A stretch of DNA of 64,000 nucleotides from Blasia pusilla (lineage: Eukaryota): contig CM114271.1 of NCBI GenBank assembly GCA_050084515.1, forward strand, positions 186,001 to 250,000, in the 5' to 3' direction. Within the stretch, counting starts at the first letter, position 1, and the number at the start of each line of letters is the position of its first letter. The translations under genes and the position numbers were made by a program. This document shows positions 23,690 through 51,187 of this stretch, one piece after another. The notes under the pieces were generated by a model. The model searched no databases and was not told where the DNA came from. It worked only from the letters and a program-made list of their open reading frames with translations.

Positions 23690-26600
23690 AGGCGTTCTGT
23701 CCAAGTGTTATGAAATCTGACTGAATTAAATTGCCAAGTATTCTAAGTTGATGACGAGAACGTACACGAGAAAGCATAACATAAAGTAGTCCAGGAGCAA
23801 ACACAAACTTTATAACTACAAAGCACTTGCTAGAAACTGTCAGCCCCGACTTTTGTGTGCTGTGATAGCGTAACCAAGAGTCAAGGGGAATTTTTTTTTA
23901 AAAACTTCTTTCCAAAAGTATAGTTGATAGTAGAAAAGCTTGTCATAGTAATGTTAAGTAGTTCACCTGATGTTGAAATTCTTACGGTGATAGAAAATAG
24001 TACATCGTGCTTATAATTTAAATGACTTACAATATCATGGGACTCATTCGCTGCCTGTGACTTTATGTCTATGTTAGACGTCAACATTACAAGACGACCA
24101 ATGGCAACAAAGAGAAGTTGATGGAAATCATCATCTTCAATCCATTGCTTGACCTCAGGCAGTGAAGATGCATATGTTGCAACGTGGACCGGTATTATAG
24201 AAGCATTTCCAAAAAATCTTTTCAAACAAAGAATGTTGTAGACATCAACATCACATCAAAATGTGCATATTATAATAGTGTCGTCCAAGATGAAATAAAT
24301 TGCGTCATTCTCACTCATAAAACATTGCTATAAGCAATGTGATATTTCATCTGGTGTGGATAACCTGTTTCTAACTATATTAAGGAAAGCCAAGTATTCG
24401 CCATCATGTGTGTGTCTCATTGGTGTAGAAAGTGTAGCTTGTATAGCATTTTGTAGAAGTGGTGAAGACAAAAGATGGCATGTCTTGCACAAAGGTTGTG
24501 AGGTAAGTTTACACACTGGGGGCAATTGTGCCTTATCTCCTACTAGTATAAAAAGCTTATCTGCAAATGGTGTATGGCAATATAAGGAGGAGGATTGGTT
24601 TAGTCTCATGGATACAATTTGTAATAAACGTGGGGTGTGCATTGAGCATTCATCAATTATAATGAGTTTTGCATCCCTAAGCTTGATGGTGGCATCTGAG
24701 GTTGGGTGCATATGTGGAACTTCTCTACGTACGTATGGGGATACAGAATGCATAATGGATGGTTGTTGCATGCTTGTGTAAACATACAGCGGCAATACCT
24801 GTAGTTGCTACTAAGAGGTAATTTCTACAAAGAAAATCTCAGTATTTGCACATAATACCAATAAAGTATGATTTCCCACAACTTGGTGATCCTGTTAACA
24901 TCAAAATGCTACATTAGAGGATCTTTATCTTATGGAAGGGGATCTGCTGCTCCGAATTTAAAAGACTCAAGTCTGGTGGAGATCTGGAACCAGGTTGGAT
25001 TGGCTGATTCAATGGTAGTTTGGGATCTCGTTGACGGAGTAGGGTATGAAGATCAAGCTGAATCTGGGGTTTAAGAATTGCCAAGGCCTTAGATAGTATT
25101 TCAGCAGTATGGACTTTGCTCCACAAATTGGCATTTGCATGGGATGTTATCAAGGTCTCTATATCAGTGACATCTGAAAAAATCTTACAAAACATGCACT
25201 CATGCAAGTATGTCCATTGATGTGAGTCAGAACTAAGAAGTAAATTCTCAGATCTGAAGGGGACATTTGGAAGAAGTTGTACATAAAAGAACTCATTCCA
25301 CTGATGAGGCGGGTGAAATTATGTAGATCTTACAAGTCTATCAGAATGAAAAATGGTATTACCTAATGCATCAATGCCTATAATGGAGTCTTGAAATTTT
25401 TTCGGAGATGTCTTGCAAATCTGGTGTGATGTCTAGAAGCGGGTAAATGTAAAAGTCTCCAGAGAGGGTGGCTTGGCACAATAGAGCTCAACGGGGTGTA
25501 TGCATGGAACTGATGAATGCTTTTGCTTAAGGAAGTTTGACGTGAAGGTGGATTGGAGTCAATATATTTTATAGATTGGGATCTAAATATAATTGGAATC
25601 TACATGGATGATAATGAAGCCTCTGTTGAAGAAACATAATGATTAAGTATGACGCCAGATACAAGTTTAAGTCTTATCTCATCCAAGTCCTAGACATCTT
25701 GTTGATTCAGTCTCGACGGTTAGTGACCTAGTTGGTTCAGATTTTAAGGCATACTTCACAAGGTAAAAAGACCAGTAAGTGTTTGCCACTCCTTGGATGT
25801 TCATGTGAGCCCCCCACAAGAGCAAGATCAAAGGATTATAGGGAATCACATTGCGGTGAGCATGCTTTGGTCTGAAATATGTCCACTGCATGGTCTTTGG
25901 GTCAATAAATGGCTCGGTGTTTAGATTTACATTAGGAGGGAAGCCTAAGCGATAGTAGTGTCGCTGCACTTGTTTTTTCCTGATAATACATACCCCTTCC
26001 TTGCATCTATGCAACTGCTTGGTAGTGACAAAGTCATGTAGTAAGGAGTCACATGAGGGATTTGATTCGTGTGAGGGATGATGAGTAGGTTTATGAGGTT
26101 GCGGAATATAAGCGCAAATTTTTGATGTAATCTCCTCAATGTCATCTTTGTGCATCCAGAATATTATGTGGCAATGCAGGCTACCTCTACCCTGCAGGTC
26201 ATACGTTATTACATAGTCCATAACCCGACCTAAAAGCTGGGGACCTGAGAATATGTACTGAGCAAGGAAAGTATGAAGCTTGGTATGAAATAGTTGAGAG
26301 AATTCAGAGGGTCCGTCACGCCAAGTAAACTTAGGATTGAACTTATGTAGAATTTCCTCAATATGGGCAATCTCAAGCCATCTTGTCGATGAAACCTCAT
26401 AAGATGTTAGTGTGAGAAAGAAATAGGGCATTCCCCATTTGTGTACCATAGCTTTAAGGTCTTTTAAGTGTTTTCTATGCGATCCGGGACTCCCAGGAAT
26501 TTGTGGGTTGAGTGAGTGTTTGGACAATTGGTGATATAAATATTCCTCACCCAGATATGGTTTCTCTTTGCGTAGTCTTTCAAGATCCTTATTGAGAATG

Positions 26601-28136
26601 AAGGAGCGAGAGGTTGAACAAAGTGAAATGGACTATCTCAACTGATACATTACAAGTGAGTAAGGCTTGAACAGGGAAAATGGGCTGAATGTATGTCTTT
26701 ATCTGAAGTGCAAGTAATCAAAGAAGGAGCGAGAACCTGGAAACAAGAAGGGAAATATTCCAATCTCTATAGTGAGTCTTCTGTCATGTGATGCGCCTAT
26801 GGAGTTTGTAAAGAAATGTTCCCTAATATTAGCTTCCTTTTTGAAGTAGAGGCAACCGTTGTAAAAAATGCATGAGGACTTTCTATTACATATAGGCAGG
26901 CAGTATGTGATGTCTTGGAGTATATTTAGCTCTAGTTGGTAGGGATTGTAAGTCATGCTATGGATAACTTGACCTTTTTCTTGGGCAGCTTTTTATGGAT
27001 GTTACCACTAATCCAGGAAGTACAACTAAACTTGCAGACGGATTGGGTAGTTCAAGAAGACATTTGTAGTCTTTCTAGAGGTCATTGATTGCAAAGTGGG
27101 TGAGAAGTACTTGCTTTAGACTATCAATAATAGCTTCAATCTTATCTCTTGATGCTGATTCCATATTCCAAGCAACAAGTGGGGAATCGATGAGTGATGC
27201 AGTGTGAGAAAAAAAAAAGTGACTAGATCACTGAAATCTTTACAAAACTTAGAGATACAAAGTGGCCTAGTTCGTCCGTACGCTCATAGAAGAGCTTCGA
27301 TGGAACCTGAAGATGCAGATAACTCGACATACGAGAATTCGCTACCGCTGCGGCTCTCGACTATTTCACTACTTGGGAAACTAGGATTATCTAACCCTAC
27401 ATTGCATCAGGGTGCCCCGCACCCGGGGCACCCTGATGCAATATAGGGTTAGATAATCCTAGTAATGCTACTCCGTAAACCACCTACGTCATATTACTAT
27501 GACTCCTTCGACGTCTAAGTCGGAACCATAAATCTAGGCTTCTCCTCATACAAGGGGGCCGATCAGATTAATGGTGTTCAGAGAAGTGGATGTTCAGAAT
27601 CCAACAATATGATTGAAGAATCCTTTGTGGAATCCATTAAATTTGTTGATAATACCAATTCTAGAGTCTACAATAGATAGTAGATGTAGATGAAATGGAT
27701 TGGGAGCTAATATGCTACGTATGTAAGCAAGAGTCATGTAGACATTTAAGCTAGTACATGGTTGATCATTGGTACAAAGATCACAGGCATAGAACTCTCC
27801 TTCCTTGGGAATAATGTACGGTGTAAGAAAACCATTACACAGAGCATAGGGAGGATAAGTGGTTGATTGTACAACGCACATTCGTGAACGTGGTGTTGAG
27901 TAAAGGACTACACCACAATACCCACAACATTGCATAGAGAGTATAAATGCATTGCAAATATCTTTCCCCTTAGATAATAAGGATTGTGCATTGGTCCAAT
28001 GGGAGCATACAAGCGTGCACTGGAGCTTTTCTTTGAGGATTTGTCGTGTACGGGCTGTTGGCCTGTGTGCTTTTAGGCGATTTTTGTGTGGTACAGTAAT
28101 TTGAGTTCTTTTGTTAGTATGAGGCCCGCAAGGCAT
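23690..28136 (-). pseudogene. Helitron Rep (HUH) / PIF1-like helicase, multiple stops and frameshifts, interrupted by a solo LTR
   Basis: Rep motifs GMPYFFLTLT, YDLQGRGSLHCHIIFW and YLVKYALK (25679-26527). Helicase motifs LTGSPSCGKSY and VATTGIAA (~24790-24900), LIIIDECSM, LVGDKAQLPPV, MRH..D.EYLAFLNIVR, and YAITAHK...FAPGLLYVMLSRV (~23760-23875). Cys-rich N-terminus at 27607-28136. Confidence 0.9.
27203..27606 (-). mobile_element. Solo LTR of the same Copia family as 43986-44432, inverted orientation
   Basis: Reverse complement is nearly collinear with 43986-44432 (TGTTGGATTCT...TTTTCTCACA). The flanks TGCAG and ATATG do not form a TSD. Confidence 0.9.
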
Positions 28137-28821
28137 GTTTCAATTTTTGAAAAAAATGGCGAGAGAGATAGACTGACATAGAGCTTGAGAGGGAGAGAGT
28201 AGTAGGGTGAGAGACAGAGAGATACAAATGGTGAGAGGTACACAAAGGAAGGAAAAAGGTAATGAACAGAAATAAGAGAAAATAAGGCGGTAGAGAGAGT
28301 TGAATAAACTTGATGAATTTAAAAAAAGTGAGAGAAATACATTGAGGGAGAGAGTGAGAGGAGGTGCGGTAAGAGGAGAGGAAGAGAGGAAGAGAGGAGA
28401 GAGGAAGCGAGGAGAGAGGAGAGAGGAAGCGAGGAGAGAAGAGAGAGGAAACTACCTTCAACCGAAAGAGATACTTTTTTTTGAAGAGAGTTTCCTTTGA
28501 TTTTAAGAGATTTTCCGTTGGGTTGAAGAGAGGAAACTTTTTGTGTGAATTTTTTTGCATTTTTTTGCTCAGTTATTAAGCAGTCCCACAGTTTTTTTTT
28601 CCTCTTCCATATTTTGGCAACCCATCTGAGTTCGACGAGTTGCAAATTGCACAAAATTTAGAAAACTGAAAAATCAGTGGAATCATAAGTGTGGAACCAA
28701 TCACTTTTTCCATCCAAGGTCCGGAAAAAATCTATCATTTGCCCTGGGCTGAATAGAGTTCAAGCTCAAAGTGAAGGTTCTGGAAAAATGAAAGTACAAT
28801 CTAAAACCTCATTTTGCATCC

Positions 28822-31800
28822 TCAAAGTGGTTTGTTTAAAATACTTGGCACTTTTTTGAGGGGCAGAATTGGTTGGTGGATTCCTACTCCTACCTCTGAC
28901 TCTCTTAAAACTACCAGTAACACATAGTACATATGCTTACAAGGGAAATACCTTTTGCCACTTGTCTCTCTTTGAACAAAGTCATCACATGAACATGTGG
29001 GAAAGCAACAGATGTGCACCACATACACCCCTGTGACACTTGAATTTACAGTGTTGTTCCTGACCCAATACATCCTTGCTATTCCATTCCCACTCTGGAC
29101 ATCTTTCGTGGCGATGATCTCCATTTTTGCTACCCGAGCTGATGCAATTCGCTTTGCTCTCTCCACCGTTGGCCTACATATTCTGTTTCTCTTCACCCCA
29201 TTTCTAGACTCAAACAGAAATAGTGGATTGAGATCATCCACCTTCTCCAGATACATGTTGACATCAATCTTGGGTTGAATACGAAATGCAAAGGTCTCTG
29301 TAATGCGAACATGCTCTAAACTTCCTCCTTCTATAAGTCTGAAACCAGCACTTGTAAGATTGTCCACTTCTTCTTGAGTGCAATTCGTACCTGCGGCGAT
29401 GGGCCAAATCATGGGGGTATTCCCCGGAGCTCCAATGGCAGCGGGATAAGACTTCCGGAAAGCGCAAGATTCATTTGGGCAAAAGAAGTACTTCAATTGA
29501 TCCCTGGAAATGTGAAACGATCAAAGGTTTTGATTCCCCAAAACCCAGGCAGTGGTCGTCCAGTCCTTGTACAGTTCTTATTTAGGAAAGTGCCGCATGC
29601 TCTCCTAATGCCATCAGATCCTGCCCTGCAAGTGGGTCCACGTCCGGGGTTGCTCTGAAATATATGCCAGCGTTTCAGGTTGCAATCCACCTCAATGACC
29701 GGAATCCCATATTGTTGAACCACCCCAGCGACCGGATGTTGCGAACTTCCAACAACGGAGGGCTTTTGAAATAAAAAATTCACTGATTTTGGAGAAGTTA
29801 CTCCATCACGGATCTGGGAGTAGTCCGGGATCCCCAAATACCTAGACAGCGTAGTTTCCTCATCCAAATCAATCACCGGATTCCTTCCTTGATGATGCCT
29901 CTTCACCTGCCTGAAGTCAAGATACTTATCTGGTCTTCACGAGTCTCGCTCGGACTGCTCTACCTCCATCTGTATGGGACGTCTGGAATCGCGCCCATGA
30001 ATTTCCCCACCAATGTTTACGTCTTGCTCAAGGGGAGTTCGTGGTACGCACCGGTTGAAGGCTTCCACATAGAGTTTTTCATCATTAGATCTCACAGCCG
30101 CCCTGACATAGAGCTCGTAGATCAAAGGCCCCCTTCCTTTTGTTATGCCTTTTGTGAGGAAGATATGGGATGTTGCAGATTGTAGCATTGCTCTTGCCTG
30201 GTCTTGTTGGCATGCTTCCACAAGTGAAATTCTTTGGCAAGCTTGTGACAACCTCCAGGAGGAATGAACACTTTCTGCTCCACTTGTGTTGGGGCAGAGG
30301 GCATTTTCATGAATGTTCAATCCCTGCAACGACGACAATGTGAGAAGGGAACAAAAATAGCTCAGAAGTCAAAGAAATAAGCTACCTGTCGGAACCACAT
30401 GGGTTGCAAGGCCGAGGCATCCCATGAACGACTCTGCGACCCGTCGGGTCTCGACGTGTTACAACACCCAGGAACCACCTATTGCAACCCGTCCTATTCC
30501 GACGGGTTGCAAGAACCTTTGGCCACTCTGGGCTGGAAGATCCAAGTGCAAGTCATCCGAAACCCATCTGGGTCAAACTGTTTCCAGGCCTTGTATACAT
30601 GCAACTTGCATACTTGTATATGAGTTGCACCAAAATTCTTGATGCAACCCGTCGGTTTCCGACTGGTTGCACACTCAGAAAACCCGTCCGTTTCTGACGG
30701 GTTGCACACTTGGGCAACCAGTCTGTTTCCGATGGGTTGCACATTCAGATAACCTGTCGCATCCGAAAAGTTTCTTGGTTTCTTCGGTTTGAAATCCCTA
30801 TAGTGTCCACACTTCTCAACTTGAGCTGCAACTTTTCCAACAATTCTCTGCGTGAGCTTGACAAGACGAAATAGTGAACTCACATGCCGTATGAAGTTTC
30901 CCCATTGTCTCATACGTACAGTCCACCAACTCAGCCAAGAGCACAATTCTTTGTACTTCCCCTTAATCGCATGCTTCCTCCACCACCCATGAAGTTCTTC
31001 TTGGCATTCCATGGTCCGTTTCAAGATTTTGCTGTCCTTACATCGTTGGAGTAGAGTGACATGCTCTGTCCTCTTATTCTCCTTGATGCAAGATTTGGTG
31101 TAACGGGTCACAGACTGTTGCCAATGGAAAGCATCCGACCTTTCCCTCTCCGGTTGAAACTCTCCACCCCAGAACACTTCCCTGATAGCAATCCACCCAG
31201 GTTGTGCATTGTCCGCCATGAACCCATAAATTTCCGGAGATAGCCTTTTGTTTTCCTTCACCACCTCCAATAAGAGTAACCAACACATCTTCAAACTGCC
31301 AACGTCTTCTGCTTTTACTTCACAGACAAATATAGTTTTGAGTCCCTTCTCCACATGGTCATAAACGTGAGCACCCATTGTCAACCATCCGTTCAGCACT
31401 CTGTAGCAAATATCAAAGCTTACCTAGCTGCCCTAAAAATCCTCCCCTTCCCTCATTCGATCTATAAGATCGAGGCCATTCGACGGACCTGTCGTTGATA
31501 TTTTGAAGATATAGACCCTGGATCCTTCACCTCCCTGGCCCATGAACTGCCATCTCTGAATGAATGGAAATATGGAGTTGGCCTTGATTCTGGAAATGGC
31601 ATCCATTTCGGCCATCTTTCCATCCAATACCCGTATTTGATGCAGCAAATTCCGGAAGCATTCAGGATCAACGAGCAATGTGAGATTTTCCCAAAGTTGT
31701 TTCTCCTCAGCAGCTGTGATCTCGCCCTGTCCAGGGATTCCAAGCAATTGTTCAAAAATTTGTGATGTTGTTGTGAGCTTGATCACTCCGGGCTTTGAAC

Positions 31801-32896
31801 CCGGAGAGTTTCTGTAGACCTCGGCCACTTTCTTCGCCACATCCTCCTTGATGTGTCTCTGAATTGCATCGGTCACAGGATGAGTGTGGGAGCCAACATG
31901 AACTGCCAACCTTGTGTACTCTGACGTGGAGCCCAAGTCGTGGACAATGAAAAATATGTTTGCAGGACACGCTCCAACGCAGAAAGGGGATGCCTGACAA
32001 TGAGGACATCGATGGCCTCCTGGCGGTATGGTGGCACCGACCTCATATGGAGTTTCTGCATTCTTGGGGGGGAATTTCGATGTATTGACCCGCCCGTTGC
32101 GCTCTAGATACGGGCATGCTGGATTTCTACACTCTAAGGCTCCAACGCATTGGCGGCGGGAGACAATCCAAGGACCATCTAGAATTGAAGCACTAGTCCG
32201 TTGAAGCTTGCACCATCGATGACAATCAGACTTTCTGTCCATACCCTTCAAGCGTCCTCCATCTTTCTTTTGAGCAAGAACAGCAAGTGGAGGCAACTCA
32301 AAAATGCAATTTCCATCGTACGTGGGCGGCAGCTCGTTGACAAGAATGTGCTTGAACATTTTCAAGGCTAGAGACGATAGCAAACTATTGCCTGATACTT
32401 GCAAGAGTAACGAGTAGGCGGACAGAGGGCCCGGTTGGTGTCCGATAGATCCATTGAGGCTGACGACATCCAAAATGTCTTCAGGAAGTACAACATTGTT
32501 ACGAGCGTGTGAAGTTGGAGTCGATGCCGAATCTATTGAGGTAGGAGTTGCAAACGCAGAGCTCGGTGCACTAGGAAATTCTTGACCATCTACTTGGGAA
32601 ACGGAGGAATTCAGATGCAAGCTGTAAACCCTGTAGTGACCATTTGCTAGAGGTAGGAGATTCCCTACTTTACGGCCTGCAATCACTGGCTGGACTATCT
32701 CACCTATTATGTCCTCCATACCGTCCATCCTAACATCCTTGGATACAAAGATGGTTCCAATTTGGAGAAGAAATCGAACTGAGAGAAAATTTTCATCCAC
32801 TGGTATGAAAGACTCACGAGCTTGCGGCCGAACGATTTCTGATTGAGGAAGGGTCGCTAGATGACTACCATAAGTGAGCTTCACATAATTCTCCAT
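28822..32896 (-). pseudogene. MULE-type DDE transposase with N-terminal GCM-like Zn domain and C-terminal SWIM Zn finger; 2 exons (intron 30324-30883); nonsense and frameshift lesions
   Basis: 31433-32896 and 30494-31399 share one frame, broken by two TAGs (DF*GS*VSFDICYRV). Catalytic candidates are SFD (31412-14), FMAD (~31212), DAFHW (MULE C/DxxH) and, after the phase-0 GTGAGT...TTGCAG intron, PNTSGAESVHSSW. SWIM: CSCDDF...PCKHMYYV. GCM-like: RRQCVGALECRNPACP...CPHC...C...GSHTHP. Confidence 0.85.
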
Positions 32897-32972
32897 TTCC
32901 GAAAGATTCCACTGGGAGGAGACTGAGAATAAGAATGAGGATAAAAATGGGAATGGGAATGAGAATGTTTAA

Positions 32973-32978
32973 TTTATA
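32973..32978 (-). promoter_or_regulatory. Candidate TATA box of the transposase gene
   Basis: TATAAA on the minus strand ~80 bp upstream of ATG 32896. Confidence 0.35.
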
Positions 32979-33399
32979 GTGAATAGGGACTCAGATTCTC
33001 CTAACAGAATATGACTGACAAGATGAAGTTTGGTACGTGAGATTGTCTGACATGATGGATTCAATTCTGTTGCAACTTGTCGGAGTCCGATGGGTTCTAG
33101 AATTTGGGAATCAGAGACGTGGGTTGGGAAGCACCCAATTCTAATTTTTTTTCCGTGTCCCAATACAAGTTGGAACCCGTCAAAGTCCATTGGGTTGGTA
33201 TCTGCTTCTTGCCGACCAATGGTCTTTTGAGTTGATTTTGCTAGCATCAAACACGAGACATCGCTTGCATTTGCTAAGGCAACCAATCGTTGGGGACTTT
33301 TGCAGGATTGTCCAACTCAGGGTAAATCTTGTGACCCGTCGGATTGCTAAGGGTTGCCTCGGAACTATGCATTGTCGCATTGTTACCCGAGGGATAGAA

Positions 33400-33880
33400 A
33401 AGCGTGCAACTTGTCGCTAATCGACGGGTTGCCCTGGTACCTCACCTATTACCCCAAGATAAGGGAAGCGTGCAATCTGTCGGATTCGGATGGGTTGCGC
33501 AAGTGCCTCACCTTGTAACGCTTACATGAAGGAAGCGTGCGACCCGTCGGCCTCCAACGAGTTGCGCGAGTGCCCCGCCTTCTTGCCTGAAGACGGCGGA
33601 GGCGCGCAACCCGTCGGCCTCAGACGGGTTGCGCAAGTGCCTCGCCTTGTAACGCTTACATAAAGGAAGCGTGCAACCCGTCGGCCTCCGACGAGTTGCG
33701 CGGGTGCCCCGCCTTGTTATCCCAAGACCCGTGCAACGCACCGGTCTCTGACGGGTTGCGCGGGTACCTCGCGTTGTTGCCCGAGGACGGCGGAGGCGGG
33801 AAACCTGTTGGTCTCCGATGTGTTTCCAAGATGGACGGATGCTTGGAACCCGCGGGAAGCGTGCAACCTGTCGGAGCCTT
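33400..33880. repeat. Array of palindromic repeats (~67-bp period) in the divergent intergenic region
   Basis: gcgtgcaacccgtcggcctc(c/a)gacg(g/a)gttgcgc units at ~33405, 33470, 33539, 33605, 33673, 33732 and further on. Confidence 0.8.
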
Positions 33881-33977
33881 CATGTTAGTGGTTTTCACGT
33901 CCAGACTTCCATAACGACCAACACGTCGCCGTCGGAACGACGATGCAACCCAACGGTCAGCCCAACGGCTCGAAAAG

Positions 33978-33985
33978 TATAAATA
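33978..33985 (+). promoter_or_regulatory. Candidate TATA box of the cargo gene
   Basis: TATAAATA ~240 bp upstream of ATG 34224, just downstream of the palindrome array. Confidence 0.4.
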
Positions 33986-35437
33986 GGCGAGGGTTCGCTC
34001 ATTTCCGGTTTTTCATTTCGCGAACTTAATTGCTCTTTTGCGCAGCTGCTGACCAGATACCAAGGGGCGCTTTACACGGCGACTCACCGCGAGACGATTC
34101 GAGCAAAAGATCGCGAGACGATTTAAGCGACTCATCAAGGTGACTCCTCAAGGCGACTCATCAAGGCGACTCATCGTGCACAGAAAGCAATTTCCTTGTC
34201 CATAGGAGGCATTTTCGGGAACAATGACAAGTAAAAAAACTCAAGCAAGCAAGGCTGGGAGCTTCACTCCCAAGTCCGGGACTCCTGCGTCACCATCTCC
34301 AGGGCCTCGTTCGGCCAATGAGATAAGGCATCAAGAGATCAAGGAGCGTGAAAGGGAAGCGGATATGCACAGGCAGGAGCTTCTTGCAAAATGTATTGAG
34401 GAGGCGCTCGAAAAACAGAACGCAGAGGCTGAGGCATCGCAGGCCTTGAAGAAAAGGATTGCCGAGGAAAAGCGTGAAAAGAAGCTTATGGACTCGTCGG
34501 TGAGGAGAGGAGAATTGGAAAAAGCTCAAAGGGAAAAAGCGATTGCGATTGAAGAAAGCCCGCCCATCCAACCGAAAGTGTTGAGATGCAAGAAATGTCC
34601 CTGATGAAGTCCGGGGACACAATCAATATAGCGGAAATGGCCGAAGTTCAAGTGACGGACGATGAGGCCATGAGGGCCACCAGCGTGGAGATGGTGGATA
34701 TCGCTGAAGAGTCAGGAGAGCGGTCTTCCTCGTCTCTTAGCCCGGCGGAAGAAATCGACCTCTATCGGACCGATGAGTTTCCAGTGGACTTGCGAGCTGC
34801 TGTCCCAGAGCAGTTGTCAGGCCAAGACACCAACCCAATCTTCGAGCGAGTAAGATACAATCTTTGTTCTTTGAGTTATGTGAAGGCCCATCTTGCAATT
34901 CATTGGCAATTGAGTGTAGTTTATTGACCTTGTCCCCGTTGTGATAGGTGGTAAAGCAATTGGCACTGATGGAGGGCCAGAACGCCCCGAGAATTCCACT
35001 TTTCCGATTCCGCACAATGGAGTACGTCTGCGAAATTCAATCTGACAAGAATATTGCAAAGTTGAAACAATCGGCAGCGACAATATCCTACGTCGACAAC
35101 TTCCCTCCGTTCTATGTTCAGCCTTACGATGAACATGGAACCCAAGCGCTGGTTACGGAGGAGGACTTGGAGGCGCTCGACACATTCGGGAGGATGAGAG
35201 AACAGGAATTCAGAAGGGCGATTGAGGGGACGGAATTCAGGTGGATGCAGAACCTGTATTTCTTCATATGGGATGAAAACCACAAGTTCATGGCGTGGAC
35301 CCACTTTGCAGAGGAGCGCCCAAACTCATTGGAGGCGCATTTTTGCGTAAAGGCAGTCGTGCTACATCCATACCCTCATCACATGGCGACGGTGGAGATG
35401 GCCATGCATGCCATGAACACTTAAGTTTCCTCTTGCT

Positions 35438-35980
35438 GCAAACCATCGGACTCGAACAAGTTGTTTGACTGCCGCTATTTTTTGGATGTTTTTGGTCGAA
35501 AGCAACTCGTCGGAGTTTGACGAGTTGCTCGATTGGCCGTTGTTTTAGGAAGGTTTTGGCCGAAAGAAACTCGTCAGAGTCCGACGAGTTGCTCGACTGG
35601 CCACTGTTTTAGGATGTTTTTGGCCGAAAGCAACTCGTCGGACTCTGACGAGATGCTTGACTGGCCGCTGTTTTAGGATTTTTTTGGCCGAAAGCAACTC
35701 GTGGGAGTCCGACGAGTTGTTCGACTGGATGCTGTTTTAGGATGTTTTTTTCCGAATGCAACTCGTCGGAGTCTGACGAGTTGCTCGACTGGCTGATGTT
35801 TTAGGATGTTTCTGGCCGAAAGCAACTTGTCGGAGTCCGACGAGTTGCTTGACCAGCCGCTGTATTAGGATGTTTTTGGCCGAAAGCAACTCGTCGGAGT
35901 CCGACGAGTTGCTCGACTAGCCGCTGTTTTAAGGGCGTTTTTGGCCGATAGCAACTCGTCGGAGTCCGAAAAGTTGCATT
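35438..35980. repeat. Intronic minisatellite: 9 x 64-bp units, each with the palindrome GCAACTCGTCGGAGTCCGACGAGTTGC
   Basis: Palindrome starts at 35438, 35502, 35566, 35630, 35694, 35758, 35822, 35886 and 35951. The linkers are near-identical (tcgactggccgctgttttaggatgtttttggccgaaa). Confidence 0.9.
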
Positions 35981-36684
35981 CGCAGGCACGGGAAGGTGAT
36001 CGGAGTAGGGGAGCTTGATTTTTGGCGTCAAATTGCAGCTTTAATTGAAATTGCGCAACCTGTCGGACTCCGACACGTTGATATGTTCACTTTTTTCGTG
36101 GAGACCACTCTCAAAATACAAATTATCTGACAACCCGTCGGAGTCCGACAGGTTGAAACCAGGCAATCACAAATCTGAATGCAATCCGCCGAACTCCGAT
36201 GGGTTGCAAAATTTAGCTTGTAGCTACCATTCCGACCATGAGCTGTGACGACCTGTCAAAGTCCGACGGGTCGCAAGAACCCATGTAGCTTGCAAAATTT
36301 CTTATATTGAGTTTGGATGTGCAGGATTGCATCCGAGGGGAATGTCACCCACCATTGGATCCAAGATTGCGTGAAGAAAGTGCCAACGACGCACCCGACA
36401 TAGTACAAGGGGTTCTTGGGCGACGCCCTTGTAAATGAGATGCTGGCAAAGGGGGCTCAAATAAAAAAAAAGACTTGGGCAAATAATTTTATTTCCCAAG
36501 ATGCAGCCATGACAATCCTTTGCTAGTCGAAGATACAGGCCACCAAGAAGAGCGCTTGATTGGAGCTGGAGCGGTGTCGTGTCGAGAATCTTTCTTCGAG
36601 CAAGGGCGGGCCTTCTAGCTGCGGTAGATGCGGTCGATGCAAGGTGAACTCTCTAATAAGTTCTCCTTTTCCAATACAAAATTA

Positions 36685-37716
36685 TGATGTACACTCTCCA
36701 TTCTCTCACGATAGGTATCACAAATGGAAGTGCCGAGGCGATCACTTCTTTGTAACATCGGACCCCGAAATTCCTAACTATAAAATCCCTATAAACTATT
36801 TTACGTTTGTACACGAGGAAGATAGCACAACTAGTGTTAAAACCTACTTGACCAGGCCTATTGACATCCATGGATCGCTATATAAGGACATACAAAGTAC
36901 AATCCCATGTCCTTCCATATGTGACGATAGGAAGAATCACCGGAGTTGGAGATTGCATGACCTGGTTCATGAACGCCTCCCCAAAGTAATAAACTAAATA
37001 GCAAGTGAACCAGTGCCTATCTACAAAGAGTACCTTGACATGGTAAGGATTGAGGAAAGGAAAGTCGGGCACAGCTCGTGCTCCACCCCTATCCATGCTT
37101 GACACACATTCTCTACTCTCCTCAAGAATGGGTTTTGGCGGAGTTATTCTCCCAAGAGGGGTAATCCACTCTCATTGGGGAAGTAACAAGCCAAAACTTC
37201 CGCTATTTTAGTATGACTAAACTCCTCTACGGTGACAAACCTCTCATCCCCACACACACACACCACATTCCAGAAATCTCTCAAAGAATAGACCATAGTC
37301 AAGTTACTCTCCCAAGAGGGGTGATCCACTCTCATTGGAAGAGCAAGCAATCCCAAAGCCATACACTCAAGAGAGACACGAGAGACTCAAGATGTGGAAT
37401 AGAAGGTGATGAACCCTTGAAGGTCCCTCCTCTTTATATACTCACAAGGATCCACAAGAGTATTTTAAATAGAACTTATCTTATCTTGTGCCACATGGCT
37501 TCCTCTCAAGGCTTAGCCAATCACATTTTGACACAAGTAGATTTCCTCTTATCTCTTCCAAAATATCCTCTTTTACCCACTTGATATTTTCCAAATTACC
37601 CCAACTAACCTAGCCACCAACCAAGACTACTTTTCCTTTTCATTAAAACAACTACTTTACTTTTATAAAATCATCTTTTATTTATTACCTCCTTTTCCTA
37701 AAGTTGGGCCCGCATA
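36685..37716. mobile_element. LTR-like insertion (probable solo LTR) inside the cargo gene; same family as 1710-3900
   Basis: Homologous to both halves of the repeat at 1710-3900 and separates coding blocks 36325-36643 and ~37810 onward. Exact ends and TSD uncertain. Confidence 0.6.
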
Positions 37717-40344
37717 AAAGAGGCACCACAAAAAGGTTTAAACATAAGAATCTCCTTTTTCTAAGCCAATTTACTTAATACTAATGAAACTCTATCTAAC
37801 ACTTAATGACGAAGGAGTTTACACACTGGTTGATTTTACTATACGACAGCGGAGGGAGAAAGTGTCTGTGTCTGAGCATGCTAAGTTCATCCAAGCTGTA
37901 GTATCTACAACTATGAAGTACACTGCAAGCAAGATCCAGCGCTACATCGCCATTCTCAACCTTGAACTTGGCCCTGATTTCTACAAGGAGTTGAAGGCGA
38001 TAATCAAGCGCCAGCGGAAGAGGGATGAAGATCCGCAGGGTTGGATTGGGAAGAAAGTGTCTCTCGATCGCGTCCATCGATTTGCCTTGTCTGGAATTTT
38101 GGAATTTAGGAGAATCCCACTAATGAAAATCATTCTCGAGGGCACAGAGGCCCAAAAGAGGGCGGCACACCATCCTCCGGGTGTCTCTCATCGAGTGATC
38201 TCCCATTGGCTCCGTGAATGGTCATTCTGGGACACGTTGCGGCTTCTCGGAAAGTCCATGCTCGTGGGTCTCCAAGCGGAGTTGAAAAGAATAGAGCCAG
38301 TTCCGGAGGAAGCAAACCTAGAGAGTGCTGAAGATTTTGAACTTTGGCTGGATGACATGCGGGACAAGCCCATAAAAAACCCAGGCTTTAGGACGATCTT
38401 CAAGGATCGCATCCTCCCTCAGGCAGACCTTGATGAAGAAATAGAGGCGAAGAAAAGGGATTTTGCAAAGAAAAAGCGAGATCTTCAGGAGCAGGCAGCC
38501 GATGCATCTCGACTAAGAGCTTCCCCACGCATGGTGTTCAGGTACCTCGTCCATTGTAAGAATGCAGGTACATGGCAAAAAATACCGGCATCTTGCAAAT
38601 TGTGGGCTTCTCCGCCTGATGGAGAGAAATTTTTCATGTACAACATGGAGATGGCTCAAAGCATGTCCGATTGGGAGGTGCTCGATCTGGCTGGACTGCA
38701 ACGACCCTGAGGACATAACCGAGAAAAATCTATGCCTGCTCTATGATGCAGTGGCCGCAAGTAGGGACGACATCCCCAATTTGGTGCAGCCTGAAGACTT
38801 TTTCGAAGGAGATGCGCAGGAGCAAGCCCTCGAGACAGCGGAGTTGGTGTCAGTTCCCAAGCATCGACACCCGCCATCGACAAATTGACAACGCTGGGAT
38901 GGAAGCTTCAACGAAATGGGCACGCTCCCTAGACGGTCCATGGGGAGGTCGAGGAGGTGGCGGTGGATCTCCTCGTCGCTGATTAGCCCTCGGGATTGCG
39001 CTTGTGGGACGAGAATCCGCCCGACGGTGTCCCAAACTGGAATGTCCCTCTTTCTTATGACCAGATCGCGCTCCTATTTTCCTTTGCAGACGCTTATCTC
39101 AGTGACATGGGCTGTTTCTTGGTTTTGATTGGAGGGAGCGAGGACGAGCTCTTCAACCTACAGTGCGTCAAGAGGTCACTAAAGTGGAGGACGGCGCAAT
39201 CGTGGGTCATCAAGAACGAGTACCCACTCTGATCCGCGACAAGTCAAATCCGAGTAAGGGCTCTAAATCCATATCCAAATTGTCTTGCTCTGACGGGTTG
39301 CATCTCTACATGCAACCCGTCGAATTTTCTGAGCTGGAGACTTTGGTGGTGCAATCCGTCTGAAAGCGACGGGTTGCAAATTTACCGCAAGTCTCCATTG
39401 GGTGAATGCAATCCGTCGGAACCCGACGGGTTCCAAGTGCTTATGCTTTTTCCTTGTGTTTATGGAATGATACAACCCGTCTGAAAGCGACGGATTGCTG
39501 TTAGCCAACCATGGGCTGCTCTAAGCCAACAACCTCTTGCCTTCCGACGGGTTGCTCACGGCAAAAAAAATCACTAACACTTGTAAAACAACCCGTCGGA
39601 CTCCGACAGGTTGTTCCAATGTTAAGACTATAACTAAGTTCTCTGGGGTTAATCGAAGTTCTTTGGGAACGAGTTGCACGTTGTGTCACCATTCTAATAG
39701 TATGCCTTTCTTGTTGTTGCATATTGAAATTAGCTCTTTCCTGTCCCTGACATTTTTTCCAACCTGCTTCTTTACAGATGGACCACTTCTTTGTCTACTG
39801 TTTTGTAAGGCCCGAGCTGAACTTCCAAGTGTTTCAGATCCTCGATCTAGTGGATCCATGCTCCAATGGGTACAACTTAGATAGTTTATACAATTCCCCC
39901 CCGGGAATTTACATGCAAGACGGTACCCTCTTACTTGGAGGAAGGGAAAAGTCACCAGCCCTGATGCAAACGCTCATCGAGCTCTGCTCAAGGCCGGGTG
40001 ACTTGGTGTTCGACTTAGTGGGCCTTTCAGGGGCGAATATCAGAGGCGCTTGGCAGAGTGGCAGGAACATTCTTTGCCTTGAGGGAAGGCAGGAAATATT
40101 TGACCTTTGCAAAGAGGCAAAGGCAGATTACGACACGCTAGTTGGGGCGTACAACTCTCCTCTGAAACCGAGAGCTCCGGTTCCAGACTCACCATTGGTA
40201 ATGACACCATCGTCACTTCCCACGATTCCAAAAATCGAGAGGGCAAGACCGACAGTAATTCTGGAAGAGCTCTCGGACGATGACATGTGAGTTCAAAGAA
40301 CTCAAGGACCCAGCTTGACTGCAGCGTTTTGGAGTGGGGATTCA

Positions 40345-41450
40345 TTTGATGACGAGGCAGAAGAATTCATAGACTATATCAAATGTACACTTCCGAGCTC
40401 CCTTTGGATGTAATAAAGCACAAGCGTTTTTTGAACGATGATGGTGTTTGTAAAAGTTTGTTGAATATTTTTTTTGGTCTTGTCGATTGTGATCGTCTAT
40501 GTACTCCGACAGTTTATTTTGCAACCCGTCAGATTCCCACGGGTTGCAACTTTCCACTTTTTGACCACTACACCTTTTTAACCACTTCCAGGCAACGTGT
40601 CGGATTCCGACAGGTTGGCTGCATGAGTGACCAGACTCTTTCCCTGTTAGTCCAACTTTAGAGGCATTGTGGCAGGCTTCTTCACTTTGCCTCCTTCCCC
40701 TAGTATCGTCAAACAAGTCGTAGGCTTCTTCTCTTCTCTAAGACGTGTTGGATTCCTACTATCTGTCGGATTGCCATGATGGTGTTTCCAAGGACGGAGC
40801 ACATATTGATATTGGATGGGTGTCACCTTGCAGAACGTACAAGATATACTGTCGAGGAAGGCGATGGGACTCAAATCAGGTTACATGGGACCGTTATGGT
40901 GTACCTAGGGGGGGGGGGGCAAGGATCTCGAATTCGCCAACATTTTCAATCCCCGTCTACAATCGGCCAGAGGAGCCACTTGTATCCCAGGACATTATTT
41001 TTGTACAGGAACCTAGGAGTTTTAGGAGTAAATTTGTAGATGACGAGGCTGAAGAAATCATAGAGTAGATCAAATGTACATTTCCGAGCTTTCTTCGGAT
41101 GTAATAAAGGACAAGATTTTTTCAAACGATAATGGTGTTTGTAAAAGTCTGTTGAATACTTTTTTTGGACTTGTCGATTGTGTTCCTCTACCTACTCAGA
41201 ATGTTTATTTTGCAACCTGTCTAATTCCGACGGGTTGCAACTTTTTAACCATTTCCAAGCAAGCTGTCGGATTCTGACAGCTTGGCTGCTTGAGTGATCG
41301 GACTCTTTCCCTGTGAGACCAACTTCTGAGGCATTGTGGCAGGCTTCTTCACTTTTGGCTCGTTCCCCTAGATTCGTCAAACCAGTTGTAGGCTTCTTTT
41401 CTTGTCTAAGACGTGCAGGATTCCTACTACCTGTCGAATTGCCATTTCGG
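40345..41450 (+). repeat. Imperfect direct repeat (~430 bp; ~40345-40775 and ~41038-41450) covering the 3' end/UTR of the cargo gene
   Basis: 'gatgacgaggc.gaagaa.tcataga....atcaaatgtaca.ttccgagct...ggattcctacta.ctgtcg.attgccat' is present twice. Confidence 0.85.
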
Positions 41451-42433
41451 ATTCCCAACCTCTTGGATTTTCGTGGGTGCAGGGTGGAATGGAATCACTT
41501 CTGTGGAATGTGAACCACTACCTACTCTCTTCTAAAGATTTCATGAATTTGAAAGCAAACAAAAATTTCAAATAGGTCAACAAGTTTTGAAGAGAGGAGG
41601 TGGATTTGGCCCTTTTTTTGAAAGAGAGACTCTCCTCTCTTCCTCTCTCTTTCCACAATACCAGCCCCCGAGTGAGAGGAAGAGAGTAGAAGAGGGAGAG
41701 ACACACAGTTATAAAAAAGGGGAGAAATGCAGAGATGAAGAAATAAGATTGCTGAAAGCATGGAGAATGGATATTTGCTCGCTTTGTGTTTAACCTGAGT
41801 TAGCCACTAGATTGGTATTTACTCCAGATTGGAGCTATGAAGAACCGTGGGGACAAATAGACTTGCACCTCACACAAGAGAGCATCTGAAATACCAAGGA
41901 GTGTAATATGAATTTGTATTGGTTATGACTGGATGTTAGCTTTGTACCATACCCAACTTTGGCATGTGGTGTTCGAGAAATGTTCCAAGTTTCTGGTATA
42001 GCTCATAGTGTATTGGAGGAGGGCGTCTGGTTCGGATCAAGGCAATGGTCTAGGGACCAATAGAGTCTAAAGACAATTTTAATTGGCTCTAAAATTGGAG
42101 TCTCATTCTTGTAGAATTAGAGACTAAGTTTCTAGGATGATGGAAATTATGGAGCAAGAACTACATTAATTGAGGTGCTTCTATTCATCAATAAGGAACG
42201 TAGGTGGATAAAGCTATGGGTTTATGCAAGATTGTCAACGAGAGCTTTGGAGTTTGACAGAGTCACGGGGGGTGTAGGCACTTGAACGAGTTATTGAGAG
42301 ATTTAGAGGATGAAGCTAAAAGCATTGAGCAGTGTGCGGATGCAGTTAGGGGAAGAAAACAGAGAGGAAGTACATAAGGAGCTTGGAGACATAAGAAATC
42401 GGAGAGGGATATTCTTAGAGAGGAATTCAAATG

Positions 42434-42577
<144 letters not shown>

Positions 42578-43985: not shown

Positions 43986-44432
43986 TGTTGGATTCTCAAC
44001 ATCCACTCCTCTGAGCTCCATTGATCTGATCGGCCCCCTTGTATGAGGAGAAGCCTAGATCGATGGTTCCGACTTAGACGTCGAAGGAGTCATAGTAATA
44101 TGACGTAGGTGGTTTACGGAGTAGCGTTACTAGGTTTATCTAACCCTATATTGCATCAGGGTGCGGGGCACCCTGATGCAATATAGGATTAGATAAACCT
44201 ATTTTTCTTCGTTTCTATTAATAGAAAAGAAGAAAAATAGGTTAAAACCCTAGTTTTCCCGAGTAGTCAAATAGTCGGGAGCCGCAGCGGTAGCGCATTC
44301 TCGTATGTCGAGTTATCTCCCAGTTCAGGTTCCATCGAAGCTCTTCTATGAGCGCACGGACGGACTAGGCCACTTTGTATCTCTAAGTTTTGTAAAGATT
44401 TAAGTGATTTCGTCACTTTATGTTTTCTCACA
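43986..44432 (+). repeat. Copia 5' LTR (447 bp) containing two long hairpins
   Basis: TG...CA termini, immediately followed by the PBS. Homologous to the solo LTR at 27203-27606. Confidence 0.9.
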
Positions 44433-44444
44433 TGATATCAGAGC
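44433..44444 (+). promoter_or_regulatory. Primer-binding site (initiator tRNA-Met type, one mismatch)
   Basis: TGATATCAGAGC versus canonical TGGTATCAGAGC. Confidence 0.85.
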
Positions 44445-44504
44445 AGTAGGTTTTCTAGTATTTTGTATCTGGCGATCTAGTGTGTTTGCACAAAATCTTG
44501 AGAG

Positions 44505-47500
44505 ATGGCTACTTCTTCGTCAGTTCGTGCTCGCCCTCCTCCGCTGGGTGAAGGGAAGTTAGATGGGTCTAACTATACGTTGTGGAAGTTCAAAATGAGA
44601 AATGTTCTCGAATCATTTGAGATCTGGGAAACGGCCACAGGGGTCGATTCAAATCCACAAGCTAGTTTGAGTTCTGCCTGCTCATCTTCATTTGGGGATA
44701 TCGATCCTGTTGTATTGTTGGCATGGAGACGCAGAAACGCTGATGCTCTATATGCAATTGTCACGAATGTAACTGATTCTGCATGACTCTCATTCAACAT
44801 ACAACCACTACTGCTGAGGCGTGGAACATTTTGAAGAATCAGTATGAAACGAGGAATGAGACTCGGATTCAGAATCTGGAGAATCAGCTTACGTCCGAGA
44901 AATTTTGAGAAGGAGAAAGCGCGGAGCAATTTTTGACAAGGATCAAGAATCTTCAAGATCAGATGGCGTCCGTAGGAATTTCAAAGTCTAGCGAAGATTT
45001 TGCACGTCAGTGCATAAGGATTTTTCCTCCAAGGTATGATAGTTTGGTCACTACACTGAATACTCAAGTAAGACCCACGCCGCTTACTTTTGAACAATTT
45101 AGTGCAATGTTGGTAGAAGAGGAAATGCGCTTCAAAGCAAGAGAGGGAAGTGATGCAGCATTTACTACCAACGTACAGAGAGGTAGAAATCACGATAACA
45201 GTTCAAATGTCAAGAATAAATTTCCACGAAAAGCCTTCAAATGCTTTTATTGTGATAAGCTAGGTCATCTTATCAAAGATTGTAGAAAGAGGAGTCAGGA
45301 TGAGAAGAACGGTTGTTTAAGATCTAAGAAGGAGTCTGGAAATTCTGTAGAACTGGGAGAACATGAAGTAGATGCTTGGGTAGCAATAGAAGAGTTTTGC
45401 ACACAGGCAGAACATTCCACTAAGACAAAGAGTGAAGATGCATGGGTGCTCGATAGTGAAGCATCTAGGCATATGACCAATCATAATGATTGGTATAGCT
45501 CCTTACAGCCTCTACAGGAGCCCATCGTTGTTACTGTTGGGAATAATGCAAAGTGCCCTGTAGAAGGGAAAGGCACAATTTCTTTAGTCTCACAAAAAGG
45601 AGATGAAAAGAAGTTAAGCTGATGTCTTTATGACGTACCCGAGTTGAAGCGAAATTTGATTTCAAGCAGTATTATGTGATCGTGACCTAGAAGTTCGTTT
45701 CAAGAAAACTGGAGCAGTCATTGAGGATGCCAATGGGAAAGTAGTGAGTGAAGGTATACGACGTGGAAATATCTACGAGTTGTATGCTTTCACGATAAGT
45801 GTAGGTACAGATCTTAGTAGCAGTAAGTTGTGGCATGAAAGATTTGGTCACCTAAGCTTTCCCTTACTAAGTCAGATGCAGAAATCTGGCATGGTTGCTG
45901 ATTTACCAACAATTTTTGGAGTGTCGGATACTTGTGAAGCTTGTATGATGGGCAAGCAACACCGACAACCATTTCCACAAGAGTCCAGCAATAGGGCAAA
46001 GGCTCCTCTAGAGTTGATACATGCTGACCTTTGTGGTAAAATGAGAACAGTGGCATTAGGTGGTTCTTCCTACTTCTTTTTAGTTGTCGACGATTATAAT
46101 AGGAAGATGTGGGTGTGTTTCCTTTGTGATAAGGCAAGTGCTTTTAGAAAATTTAAAGTATGGCACAAGCTGGTTGAGAATGAGACAGGAAAGAAGGTAC
46201 AAAAGCTTCGCACCAATCAAGGAGGAGAATTCTTATCAACAGAATTCAACAAATATTTGGGAGAGCATGGAATCAAGCGACAGTTAACCACGGCACATAC
46301 ACCACAACAAAATGGAGTTGTTGAGCGTCAAAACCGTACAGTGGTGGAGATGGCAAGATGTATGATGAAAGCAAAAGGTTTGACAGAAGGATTTTGGGCT
46401 GAAGTTGTTAATACTGCCGTATACATTCTAAATAGAAGTGCTACCAAGTCAGTGCAAGGCATAACTCCTCATTAATCATACTCAGGTAAGGTACCATCAG
46501 TCCAACATTTCAGGACTTTTGGTAGTGAGTGTTTTGTACATATTCTTGAAGCATCGAGGACCAAGTTGGAGTCCAAGAGCAGGAAGTGCATCTTTATGGG
46601 ATACAGTGATGAGTCTAAAGCTTATCGCCTTTGGTGTCCTGAGGAAAAGAAGATGCTTGTGAGTCGTGATGTGGTGTTCCAAGAACAGCCTCGTCAAGTG
46701 GCGGATATCAGTGGTCCGTCCACATTATCATCAAATGAAGAGATAACCCACCAGAGCACACCACAAATGTTTACACCAGATCATCAAGAAGAAGAATTTG
46801 GTGATGATTACAAAGAGCAACCTGCTCTTCCACTACGGTCATCATACCCTAAGTGGATAAAGCAGCTCTTGGATGGTAAAGATCCACCAGCAACTGATGA
46901 AGTTGTTACACATCCAAGGAGATCCAAGAGACTAGAGGAGCAGAATAGAGCTTCCGCACATCTCGTCAATATGGCCCTGATGACAGAGGTCTTGAAGGTG
47001 GAAGAGCCATCATGCTTGGATGAGGCCCTGGCTCATCCTCAATGGAGAGAGGCCATGCAGATGGAGATGGACGCTATTCAGAGAAATAAAACTTGGACTT
47101 TGGTTGAAAAGCCAAAGGACAGGAAGATAATACGCACCAAGTGGGTGTACAAGACCAAGTACAAGTCGGACAGTACATTGGATAAATTCAAAGCGAGGTT
47201 GGTTGCACAAGGATGCTCATAAATCGAAGGTTTTGACAACTATGAGACTTTTGCTCCCACTGCAAGGATGACAACCATTCGAATTGTTCTAGCGGTTGCA
47301 GGAACAAGACGTTGGCATGTATACCAATACGATGTGAAGTCTGTTTTTCTGAACGGGAGTCTCAAGGAGGAGGTATATGTTTCTCAACCACCAGGTTTTG
47401 AGACACCCGGATCAGAAGAGAAAGTTTGTTTACTTCATCGAGCATTGTATGGGTTGAAGCAAGCCCCAAGGGTATGGTATTAACGAATAGATACATTCTT

Positions 47501-50848: not shown

Positions 50849-51187
50849 GACATTTCGCTGCGCCGGATTACCACTACGCAATCCGACCCGATCACCTCCT
50901 TTCTCCTCCACGTCCGTCTATAGTCCGCGTCTCTCTCTCTCTCTCTCGAACTGCCCGAGGCTCCGGGCAGAGTAACGGAGACTTCGACGAACTTCACGCC
51001 ACCGTAACCAGCCATCCACCTCTCCGCTTTACGGGCGAGGGAGGATTCGAACTTCCAGTTCCTGCTACCTCAAAGTAGCTGTTGCTCGCCGTAACGACTT
51101 CTATTCTTAGCTGCCTCCACCGTATCCCATGCTCCATCCTATTCCTAGACCGGGGCCTCTAGAATCTAAATCAGTGTGGGTCCCACA

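Follow-up and report, generated by a model that had tools for sequence, protein, structure and literature searches.

A ParB/sulfiredoxin-fold and methyltransferase-like accessory gene in a palindrome-rich Mutator-like element family of Blasia pusilla

We analyzed a stretch of 64,000 nucleotides from Blasia pusilla (contig CM114271.1, positions 186,001 to 250,000), referred to as the window. It contains a decayed copy of a Mutator-like (MULE) element, which carries a transposase gene and an accessory gene of four exons, located head-to-head on opposite strands. The following features were assigned (window positions):

28361..41669: Mutator-like (MULE) element, decayed copy, 13.3 kb, boundaries common to genomic copies
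28352..28360, + strand: left 9-bp target site duplication, GAGTGAGAG
41670..41678, + strand: right 9-bp target site duplication, GAGTGAGAG
30884..32896, - strand: transposase exon 1, Cys/His-rich N-terminal part; two in-frame stops in the window copy
28822..30323, - strand: transposase exon 2, region of the third acidic residue and, at the C-terminus, a SWIM finger; the window copy has a stop and a frameshift here
34224..34849, + strand: accessory gene exon 1, encoding a charged N-terminus that is probably disordered; the window copy has a frameshift here
34948..35420, + strand: accessory gene exon 2, predicted ParB/sulfiredoxin-fold domain; donor lost in the window copy
35272..35286, + strand: position of the P-motif (Box II), DENHK in the window copy, DGNHR in most copies
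36325..39253, + strand: accessory gene exon 3, segment after the ParB core, long helical region, linker and first methyltransferase-like half
36575..37848: nested insertion of 1,274 bp with TGTCG...CGACA ends and a 4-bp duplication, unrelated to the family
38981..38992, + strand: position of methyltransferase motif IV, DLPS in 28/30 copies; stop codon in the window copy
39778..40290, + strand: accessory gene exon 4, second methyltransferase-like half; PF01555 (N6_N4_Mtase) at E=1.8e-4, below the cut-off
40000-40035, + strand: position of the SAM-binding motif I, DLVFDLVGLSGA, in exon 4

The borders of the element were set with ten copies, each fetched with 20 kb of context. All three of these copies that show both ends in order are flanked by a 9-bp duplication (0-1 mismatch), and a 29-base pattern of the left end has 762 exact matches genome-wide (control: 0). 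In less damaged copies the element measures about 12.5 kb. Long terminal inverted repeats were not found; the ends consist of short degenerate inverted tracts, which are purine-rich or pyrimidine-rich. MULEs lacking terminal inverted repeats exist, for example VANDAL. Exon 1 of the transposase contains the first two acidic residues of a putative DDE triad, as read from the motif. The SWIM finger (PF04434) was found with E=0.015 and 0.0073, which does not reach the curated cut-off, and the Pfam MULE HMM gave no match to the transposase. In the ESM Atlas the nearest named clusters of the transposase core carry PF10551 (MULE; scores 0.93-0.94). The protein was classified as a predicted MULE-type transposase with SWIM finger, the MULE placement coming from one line of evidence, the Atlas clusters. 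The transposase was seen beside the accessory gene in this genome only; a search for transposase relatives with Riccia locus tags gave only two unnamed proteins, both on short contigs.

The window copy is dead. Apart from the stops and frameshifts in the transposase and in accessory exon 1, it shows DENHK in the P-motif, a cysteine at residue 28, the lost splice donor and the stop in motif IV, and exon 3 is broken by the 1,274-bp insertion and, near 38848, has lost about 370 bp. Other copies are numerous. A search of the genome (390 Mb, 26 contigs) revealed 2,869 candidate copies; 150 of these were scored, and the best-scoring 30, including the window, were fetched. Apart from the window itself, the 150 scored copies are 82-89% identical. 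About 2,900 candidate sites exist for each of two exons, so that the family occupies a sizeable part of the genome. With two distant homologues as queries, the genome search led back to this family, at 80-94% identity to the sister copy L018. Long accessory frames are visible in less damaged genomic copies.

Copies of the nested 1,274-bp insertion occur in or near two other fetched copies (96-98% identical) and in a third (85%), and a remnant of 71% identity lies at window position 1690-2136. The insertion may be a solo LTR or a small DNA element. Some loci of the family are rearranged. At L045 and L046 (C7 near 21.0 Mb), the segment running from promoter array to intron 2 has the opposite orientation to the remainder of the element, and its break points lie close to palindromes; this may be due to recombination between palindromes or to an assembly artefact. 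Rearrangement or nesting is likewise seen at L043/44, L047/48 and L039/40. The window contains several further features. Long inverted repeats at 27203-27606 and 43986-44432 were rejected as ends of the Mutator-like element, as they belong to a copia element. This decayed element (43986-48259) starts with the LTR at 43986-44432, and the inverted LTR copy at 27203-27606 holds a near-perfect 84-bp hairpin (27380-27463). A Helitron remnant is located at 24328-26632 (- strand), with pieces of Helitron_like_N (E=5e-20) and PIF1 helicase (E=5e-9). A BTB_2 (BTB/POZ) domain (E=3.7e-15) is encoded in one open frame at 50210-50917 (- strand), which is probably a host gene, and a long (GA)n microsatellite lies at 42437-42575.

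Exon 2 of the accessory gene was first noticed as an open frame of 158 residues (34948-35424, + strand), which the preliminary description took as the extent of the exon. The frame was retained, whereas the end had to be moved to 35420, since the splice donor at this position reads GT in 29 of 30 copies and TT in the window copy alone. The apparent stop at 35422-35424 is therefore intron sequence, which rules it out as the end of the gene. Exon 2 is thus a true internal exon of the four-exon accessory gene. The acceptor is AG in 24 of the 28 copies in which it was located, the next acceptor after the exon 2 donor in 22 of 26, and the phases match.

It had also been proposed that DENHK lies two G>A changes away from the ParB-like motif DGNHR. 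This was confirmed by the codons of the genomic copies, GAT GGA AAY CAC AGG in the majority and GAT GAA AAC CAC AAG in the window; the DENHK of the window is decay of a dead copy. Among the best-scoring 30 copies, 20 read DGNHR, as the preliminary description had suggested checking, four read DGNHK, and six forms occur once each (D*NHR, DGNHG, DGNHT, DGNHM, DENHR and the DENHK of the window). Further loci chosen with outside queries gave DGNHR in 20 of 24 cases, with two pairs representing the same place and three repeating earlier loci. In homologues outside this genome (n=115), DGNHR was found 78 times and EGNHR 11 times. The phosphate-binding motif GxxR, absent from the window copy, is present in 92 of the 111 homologues that cover it. 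Residue 28 is arginine in 17/30 copies and in 82/92 homologue rows. The form DGNHK recurs in genomic copies L009, L011, L014, L025, L085 and L087, perhaps as a sub-lineage which spread with an altered pocket, or perhaps by repeated deamination at one site.

A phmmer search of 1.84 billion representatives revealed 114 relatives of exon 2 at E<=0.001 with 26-50% identity, and a word-index search for longer homologues added one more, giving the total of 115. Of the 30 homologues looked up, the named ones belong to Riccia sorocarpa (12) and Adiantum nelumboides (1). Also conserved are IPLCR, Arg 28, GY at 47-48, three Trp and a closing Asn. The AlphaFold2 model of L018, built on 75 homologue sequences, reached a pLDDT of 92.9 and a pTM of 0.87. 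With this model, Foldseek gave a best E-value of 9.3e-3 and none at E<=0.001; the 33 matches listed all come from the ParB/sulfiredoxin superfamily, namely Noc, ParB, KorB, PadC, sulfiredoxin, SbnI, a serine kinase and two hypothetical proteins, which we take to be ParB-like. Comparison with 48,161 chains by VIA-align gave 16 matches with Z>=2, the top twelve of which belong to the ParB/sulfiredoxin superfamily, with KorB in first place (Z 8.7, rmsd 2.2, 91 aligned), PadC (Z 8.0, rmsd 2.8, 95 aligned) and sulfiredoxin (Z 6.9, rmsd 3.5, 89 aligned); unrelated matches reach Z 2.1 at most. This agrees with the ESM Atlas, in which clusters near exon 2 carry ParB_N (11% of members), DUF6551 and fungal DUF3723 (scores 0.92-0.94).

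The ParB domain was missed by sequence-profile searches. Pfam ParB_N (PF02195) matched neither the window exon nor L018 nor the 75 aligned members; no relative of the exon was found in PHROGs or in viral contigs, and the PDB sequence search returned 0 matches at E<=10. Of two metagenome scans for homologues, the first gave none and the second three. A search of the genome with PF02195 detected one unrelated bacterial-type gene only and not this family, and hhalign against the ParB_N gene from contig C23 gave a probability of 2.5%. Nevertheless, a chance signal can be dismissed, because 114 proteins were found at E<=0.001 and the fold search is topped by the ParB/sulfiredoxin superfamily alone. 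We therefore consider the ParB/sulfiredoxin fold of exon 2 secure. The ParB/sulfiredoxin-like domain of the preliminary description is thus borne out by the fold searches with L018, and the GxHR motif, on which that proposal also depended, is present in the homologues. Two observations stand beside these results. The fungal DUF3723 clusters score 0.94 to the ParB-like exon in the ESM Atlas, and no paper linking DUF3723 with ParB was found in the literature searched. A canonical ParB_N gene (L108, C23:42397-45663) lies in a part of the assembly that is intronless and gene-dense and resembles DNA of a bacterium or prophage.

The accessory protein is predicted to comprise about 1,200 residues, in which the N-terminus and the ParB domain are followed by a helical region and, after a linker, by a permuted N4/N6-methyltransferase-like domain. 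That the ParB exon is spliced to the methyltransferase-like part, as assumed from the beginning, is suggested by the conserved, in-phase splice sites and by predicted gene models. In Riccia sorocarpa (P0118, P0016 and P0154) and in the fern Adiantum (P0060), both parts belong to a single predicted chain, with which exon 3 can be aligned from its first residues onward. A homologue on a metagenome contig (L051) contains an intron at the same place and shows the same domain order. Architecture and intron are conserved at about 35% identity. Furthermore, 40 of the 115 homologues end right after this intron position, as intron-blind gene callers would leave them. The helical region was modelled at mixed confidence; alignments to ParB and Noc run on into it, but with an rmsd of 15-19 A. 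Its best helix-turn-helix (HTH) match (Z 5.4) stands among unrelated helical matches, and neither an HTH nor a C-terminal dimer domain was demonstrated by structure comparison with this model.

The methyltransferase-like part is similar to phage DNA methyltransferase families (PHROG 3008, E=4e-9), both halves align in order to CcrM, although weakly (E=0.11), and Riccia P0127 matches PF01555 above the cut-off (E=1.9e-7). The motif IV region precedes motif I, which is the permuted (beta-class) order of N4/N6 DNA methyltransferases. In the catalytic motif [DNSH]PP[YFW] of these enzymes, the aromatic residue stacks the target base (PMC4738411). This motif was not found in the accessory gene, where DLPS prevails; Riccia shows DLPT, DLPS, DMPS or DMPT, L051 DYPE and Adiantum DVPF. 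Therefore, the base-stacking aromatic residue is mostly absent.

A further feature of the element is a 25-bp palindrome, CAACCCGTCGGA-N-TCCGACGGGTTG, which occurs 38 times in the window at <=5 mismatches, always inside the element:

28618-28642: 1 palindrome, left arm
30382..30739: 6 palindromes, transposase intron
33073..33758: 8 palindromes between the head-to-head genes, partly in a 67-bp tandem array
35439..36273: 13 palindromes, accessory gene intron 2, partly in a 64-bp tandem array
39276..39613: 6 palindromes, accessory gene intron 3
40522..41284: 4 palindromes, right arm

None of the 38 overlaps an exon (5,253 non-coding vs 6,778 coding bases; 0 in 50 shuffles). The 20-kb contexts of genomic copies contain 29-55 palindromes each, and the palindrome is unchanged in copies that have diverged further (about 72% DNA identity). 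In its degenerate form, it has 7,639 exact sites genome-wide, inside or outside the family. On the 4.8 kb of L051, no palindrome array was seen.

In addition, we analyzed whether the accessory gene was under selection while the family multiplied. Changes shared by four or more of 30 copies were compared with singletons as ratios of non-synonymous to synonymous changes (N:S), excluding C>T and G>A; the copies were picked by score, which lowers the non-synonymous counts in both classes. For the ParB exon, shared changes were 13:32 and singletons 59:18 (p=3.7e-7). With 8-11 full copies, the ratios for shared and singleton changes were 14:38 and 49:26 in the ParB exon, 10:42 and 75:32 in the first helical part, 14:36 and 69:36 in the first methyltransferase-like half, 7:13 and 69:25 in the second, and 13:30 and 152:52 in the transposase core. 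All nine regions analyzed in this way point in the same direction, eight of them significantly (linker: p=0.066). The last exon gave no signal in 30 unmasked copies including intron and tail (22:9 vs 119:34); the signal is present when the exon is trimmed and masked near gaps. Purifying selection on the accessory gene is as strong as on the transposase and shows that the accessory gene helped the multiplying copies. Deamination-type changes per site amount to 0.071 (CG), 0.071 (CHG) and 0.026 (CHH) in the ParB exon and to 0.059, 0.055 and 0.005 in the methyltransferase exon. C>T and G>A changes at CG and CHG thus exceed those at CHH 3- to 11-fold, as would be expected from plant-type methylation. 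As the copies are heavily deaminated, any protection of the element must be incomplete or have lapsed.

Dimer formation was modelled with two copies of the Riccia homologue P0018 (156-560) with ATP and Mg, without alignment. The model scored 0.67, compared with 0.00 for the best of three controls; individual runs gave 0.16, 0.67 and 0.68, with contacts agreeing in at least 25% and a pLDDT of at least 49. Of the solved pairs, 21 of 30 reached the mark used for a dimer, compared with 0 of 23 single chains; for eukaryotic proteins, 17 of 29 passed, but just one of the seven that lack an older solved relative. In the modelled interface, the helix and loop preceding the P-motif (residues 189-218) of one chain contact the segment that follows the conserved Asn (residues 315-346) in the other. 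Such an interface is typical of closed ParB dimers. The pass may stem from a memory of solved ParB dimers; it indicates likeness and not binding.

Taken together, we propose that the accessory protein is a palindrome-directed, nucleotide-gated dimer which protects or activates its own element in a role similar to that of VANC, and we assign this reading a probability of about 0.5. The protein would act as a dimer and would recognize the two-fold symmetric palindrome amassed in the promoter and introns. NTP binding at the ParB domains would close the dimer, which could then stay on or spread along the element and keep it expressed or transposition-competent against host CG/CHG methylation. As the methyltransferase-like domain is under selection but has mostly lost its motif IV aromatic residue, it is more likely to bind SAM or DNA or to flip bases than to set an ordinary 4mC/6mA mark. 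A stronger version assumes a ParB/parS-type system in the plant nucleus, in which an NTP-gated clamp would load at the palindrome and spread over the 12-kb element, while the methyltransferase-like domain would write a non-canonical base mark or block host 5mC, enabling thousands of copies. A survey of ParB-fold proteins describes binders of CTP, ATP and GTP, with a specificity that is not readable from sequence or models (10.1101/2025.10.10.680097). This, the helical region without an assignment and a dimer model that indicates likeness only are the reasons why the dimer is placed at even odds, and why the sliding clamp appears improbable to us.

The best of the alternatives, still an unlikely one, is that the palindromes are bound by the transposase or by a host factor, the ParB-methyltransferase protein being non-specific in sequence or acting through the transposase. 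The transposase has its own Cys/His-rich N-terminal part as a possible palindrome binder, and a Mutator transposase alone was reported in the available part of a preprint to activate its own copies sequence-specifically (10.64898/2026.08.24.746577). The accessory protein without a demonstrated HTH and the homologue L051 without a palindrome array fit this explanation as well. It is at odds with the distribution of the sites, only 5 of 38 being located in the arms compared with 19 in the accessory gene introns and 8 in the shared promoter, and with the red algae, in which ParB-domain genes adjoin inverted-repeat arrays on elements of another transposase superfamily (10.1101/2025.02.11.637652).

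Slightly less probable is a ParB-fold domain that resembles sulfiredoxin, the serine kinase SerK or DndB in being an enzyme or switch which uses ATP/ADP or GTP, and that regulates the fused domain with no DNA-entrapping clamp. DGxHR-type motifs are typical of this non-clamp group, and sulfiredoxin, SerK and SbnI lie within about 2-3 Z units of KorB. The best structural matches, on the other hand, are the CTP clamps KorB, PadC, Noc and ParB, the conserved Asn and the segment following it form the modelled dimer interface, and symmetric DNA sites are abundant. ParB-methyltransferase fusions analyzed in vitro include ATP binders, which would suit a switch, and 17 of 28 purified proteins bound nothing (10.1101/2025.10.10.680097).

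We consider it equally doubtful that the protein is an active 4mC/6mA methyltransferase marking its own element, with a ParB domain that only targets or licenses it; this would be compatible with the proposed palindrome-directed dimer. Purifying selection on both halves, the Asp and Pro of motif IV and the Asp/Gly pattern of motif I, which are kept in Riccia, the fern, L051 and this genome, the similarity to PHROG 3008 and weakly to CcrM, and the aromatic residue kept by the fern would agree with such an enzyme. This genome, Riccia and L051, however, carry Ser, Thr or Glu in place of the aromatic residue, the motif I sequence DLVGLSG of this genome is atypical, and the second half gave no selection signal in the 30 unmasked copies. 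A mere passenger role of the accessory gene, with no benefit to the element, might be suggested by the decay in every copy examined, but is largely refuted by purifying selection equal to that on the transposase and by the conserved architecture and intron.

ParB-type clamps and N4/N6 methyltransferases are prokaryotic tools, for which a role in self-recognition or anti-silencing in eukaryotic transposons has been suggested for algae only and never tested. The family described here offers what such a test requires, as its nucleotide pocket is conserved, its candidate DNA site is sharply defined, a liverwort genus supplies natural intact homologues, and selection is evident. If the palindrome-directed dimer is true, Mutator elements would have two unrelated anti-silencing systems, of which this one would possibly be the first ParB-type NTP-gated DNA clamp in plants and a possible tool for targeted chromatin spreading. 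A ParB-methyltransferase accessory gene has been published for algae, and it appears that the land-plant Mutator form with palindrome and altered motif IV has not. No land-plant case of such a transposon gene was found in the literature searched; Repbase, supplements, subscription papers and Iyer et al. 2011 may hold one. In its accessible text, an Arabidopsis atlas of transposon products gives no ParB (PMC13547354).

Several known systems resemble parts of this element. The same two domains in the same order are found in phage and prophage fusions of ParB with N6_N4_Mtase (10.1101/2025.10.10.680097; PMC4738411), which are frequent in phages according to the ParB-fold survey, in whose accessible text the words plant and transposon are absent (10.1101/2025.10.10.680097). 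These fusions are prokaryotic and intronless, in contrast to the gene described here with its long helical region and linker between the domains; they are likely its ultimate source. The CTP clamps ParB, Noc and KorB share the predicted fold, GxxR, the upstream Arg, the downstream Asn, the modelled N-domain dimer and palindromic repeated sites. The accessory protein differs from them by an insertion of about 45 residues in the fold, the GNHR motif, the lack of ParA, and no demonstrated HTH or C-terminal dimer domain.

VANC is likewise an accessory protein of a Mutator-like element with motif arrays in promoter and introns; its targets are short motifs multiplied in non-coding tandem arrays of the VANDAL promoter and introns (PMC5735166). 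It is unrelated (DUF1985/DUF287, MAIN-like) and, as described in the source available, binds 9-bp motifs in the same orientation and not a 25-bp palindrome. In the liverwort Marchantia, MpDN4MT1 also contains a prokaryotic-type beta-class N4/N6 methyltransferase domain, but it shows the motif TSPPY and is a host gene for sperm 4mC, with no ParB mentioned in the accessible text (10.1101/2021.02.12.428880). Red algal Plavaka elements (PAG2/PAG3) carry a ParB-like accessory gene beside inverted-repeat tandem arrays and a PF01555 methylase on the same element; their accessory genes were linked to massive amplification, and homologues were reported on Chondrus Mutator elements (10.1101/2025.02.11.637652). 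In Plavaka, ParB-2OG oxygenase and methylase-SET are two genes, whereas ParB and methylase are predicted to form one chain here. A gene of this kind has been described for Sola1-1_Ec32 from Ectocarpus, which encodes a protein of 1,104 amino acids with ParB-like and N4/N6 DNA methyltransferase domains opposite to the transposase; it was proposed to bind and modify its own element, and similar proteins were noted in green and red algae (PMC12477816). The same proposal was made for Ectocarpus and Bostrychia elements (PMC12477816; 10.1101/2025.02.11.637652). Likened by description, Sola1-1_Ec32 and the element analyzed here both combine ParB-like and methyltransferase parts in one gene on the strand opposite to the transposase. 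Ectocarpus is a brown alga with a Sola transposase, whereas the element described here belongs to a land-plant-type genome and is a MULE present in thousands of copies, in which the palindrome is defined and motif IV degenerate.
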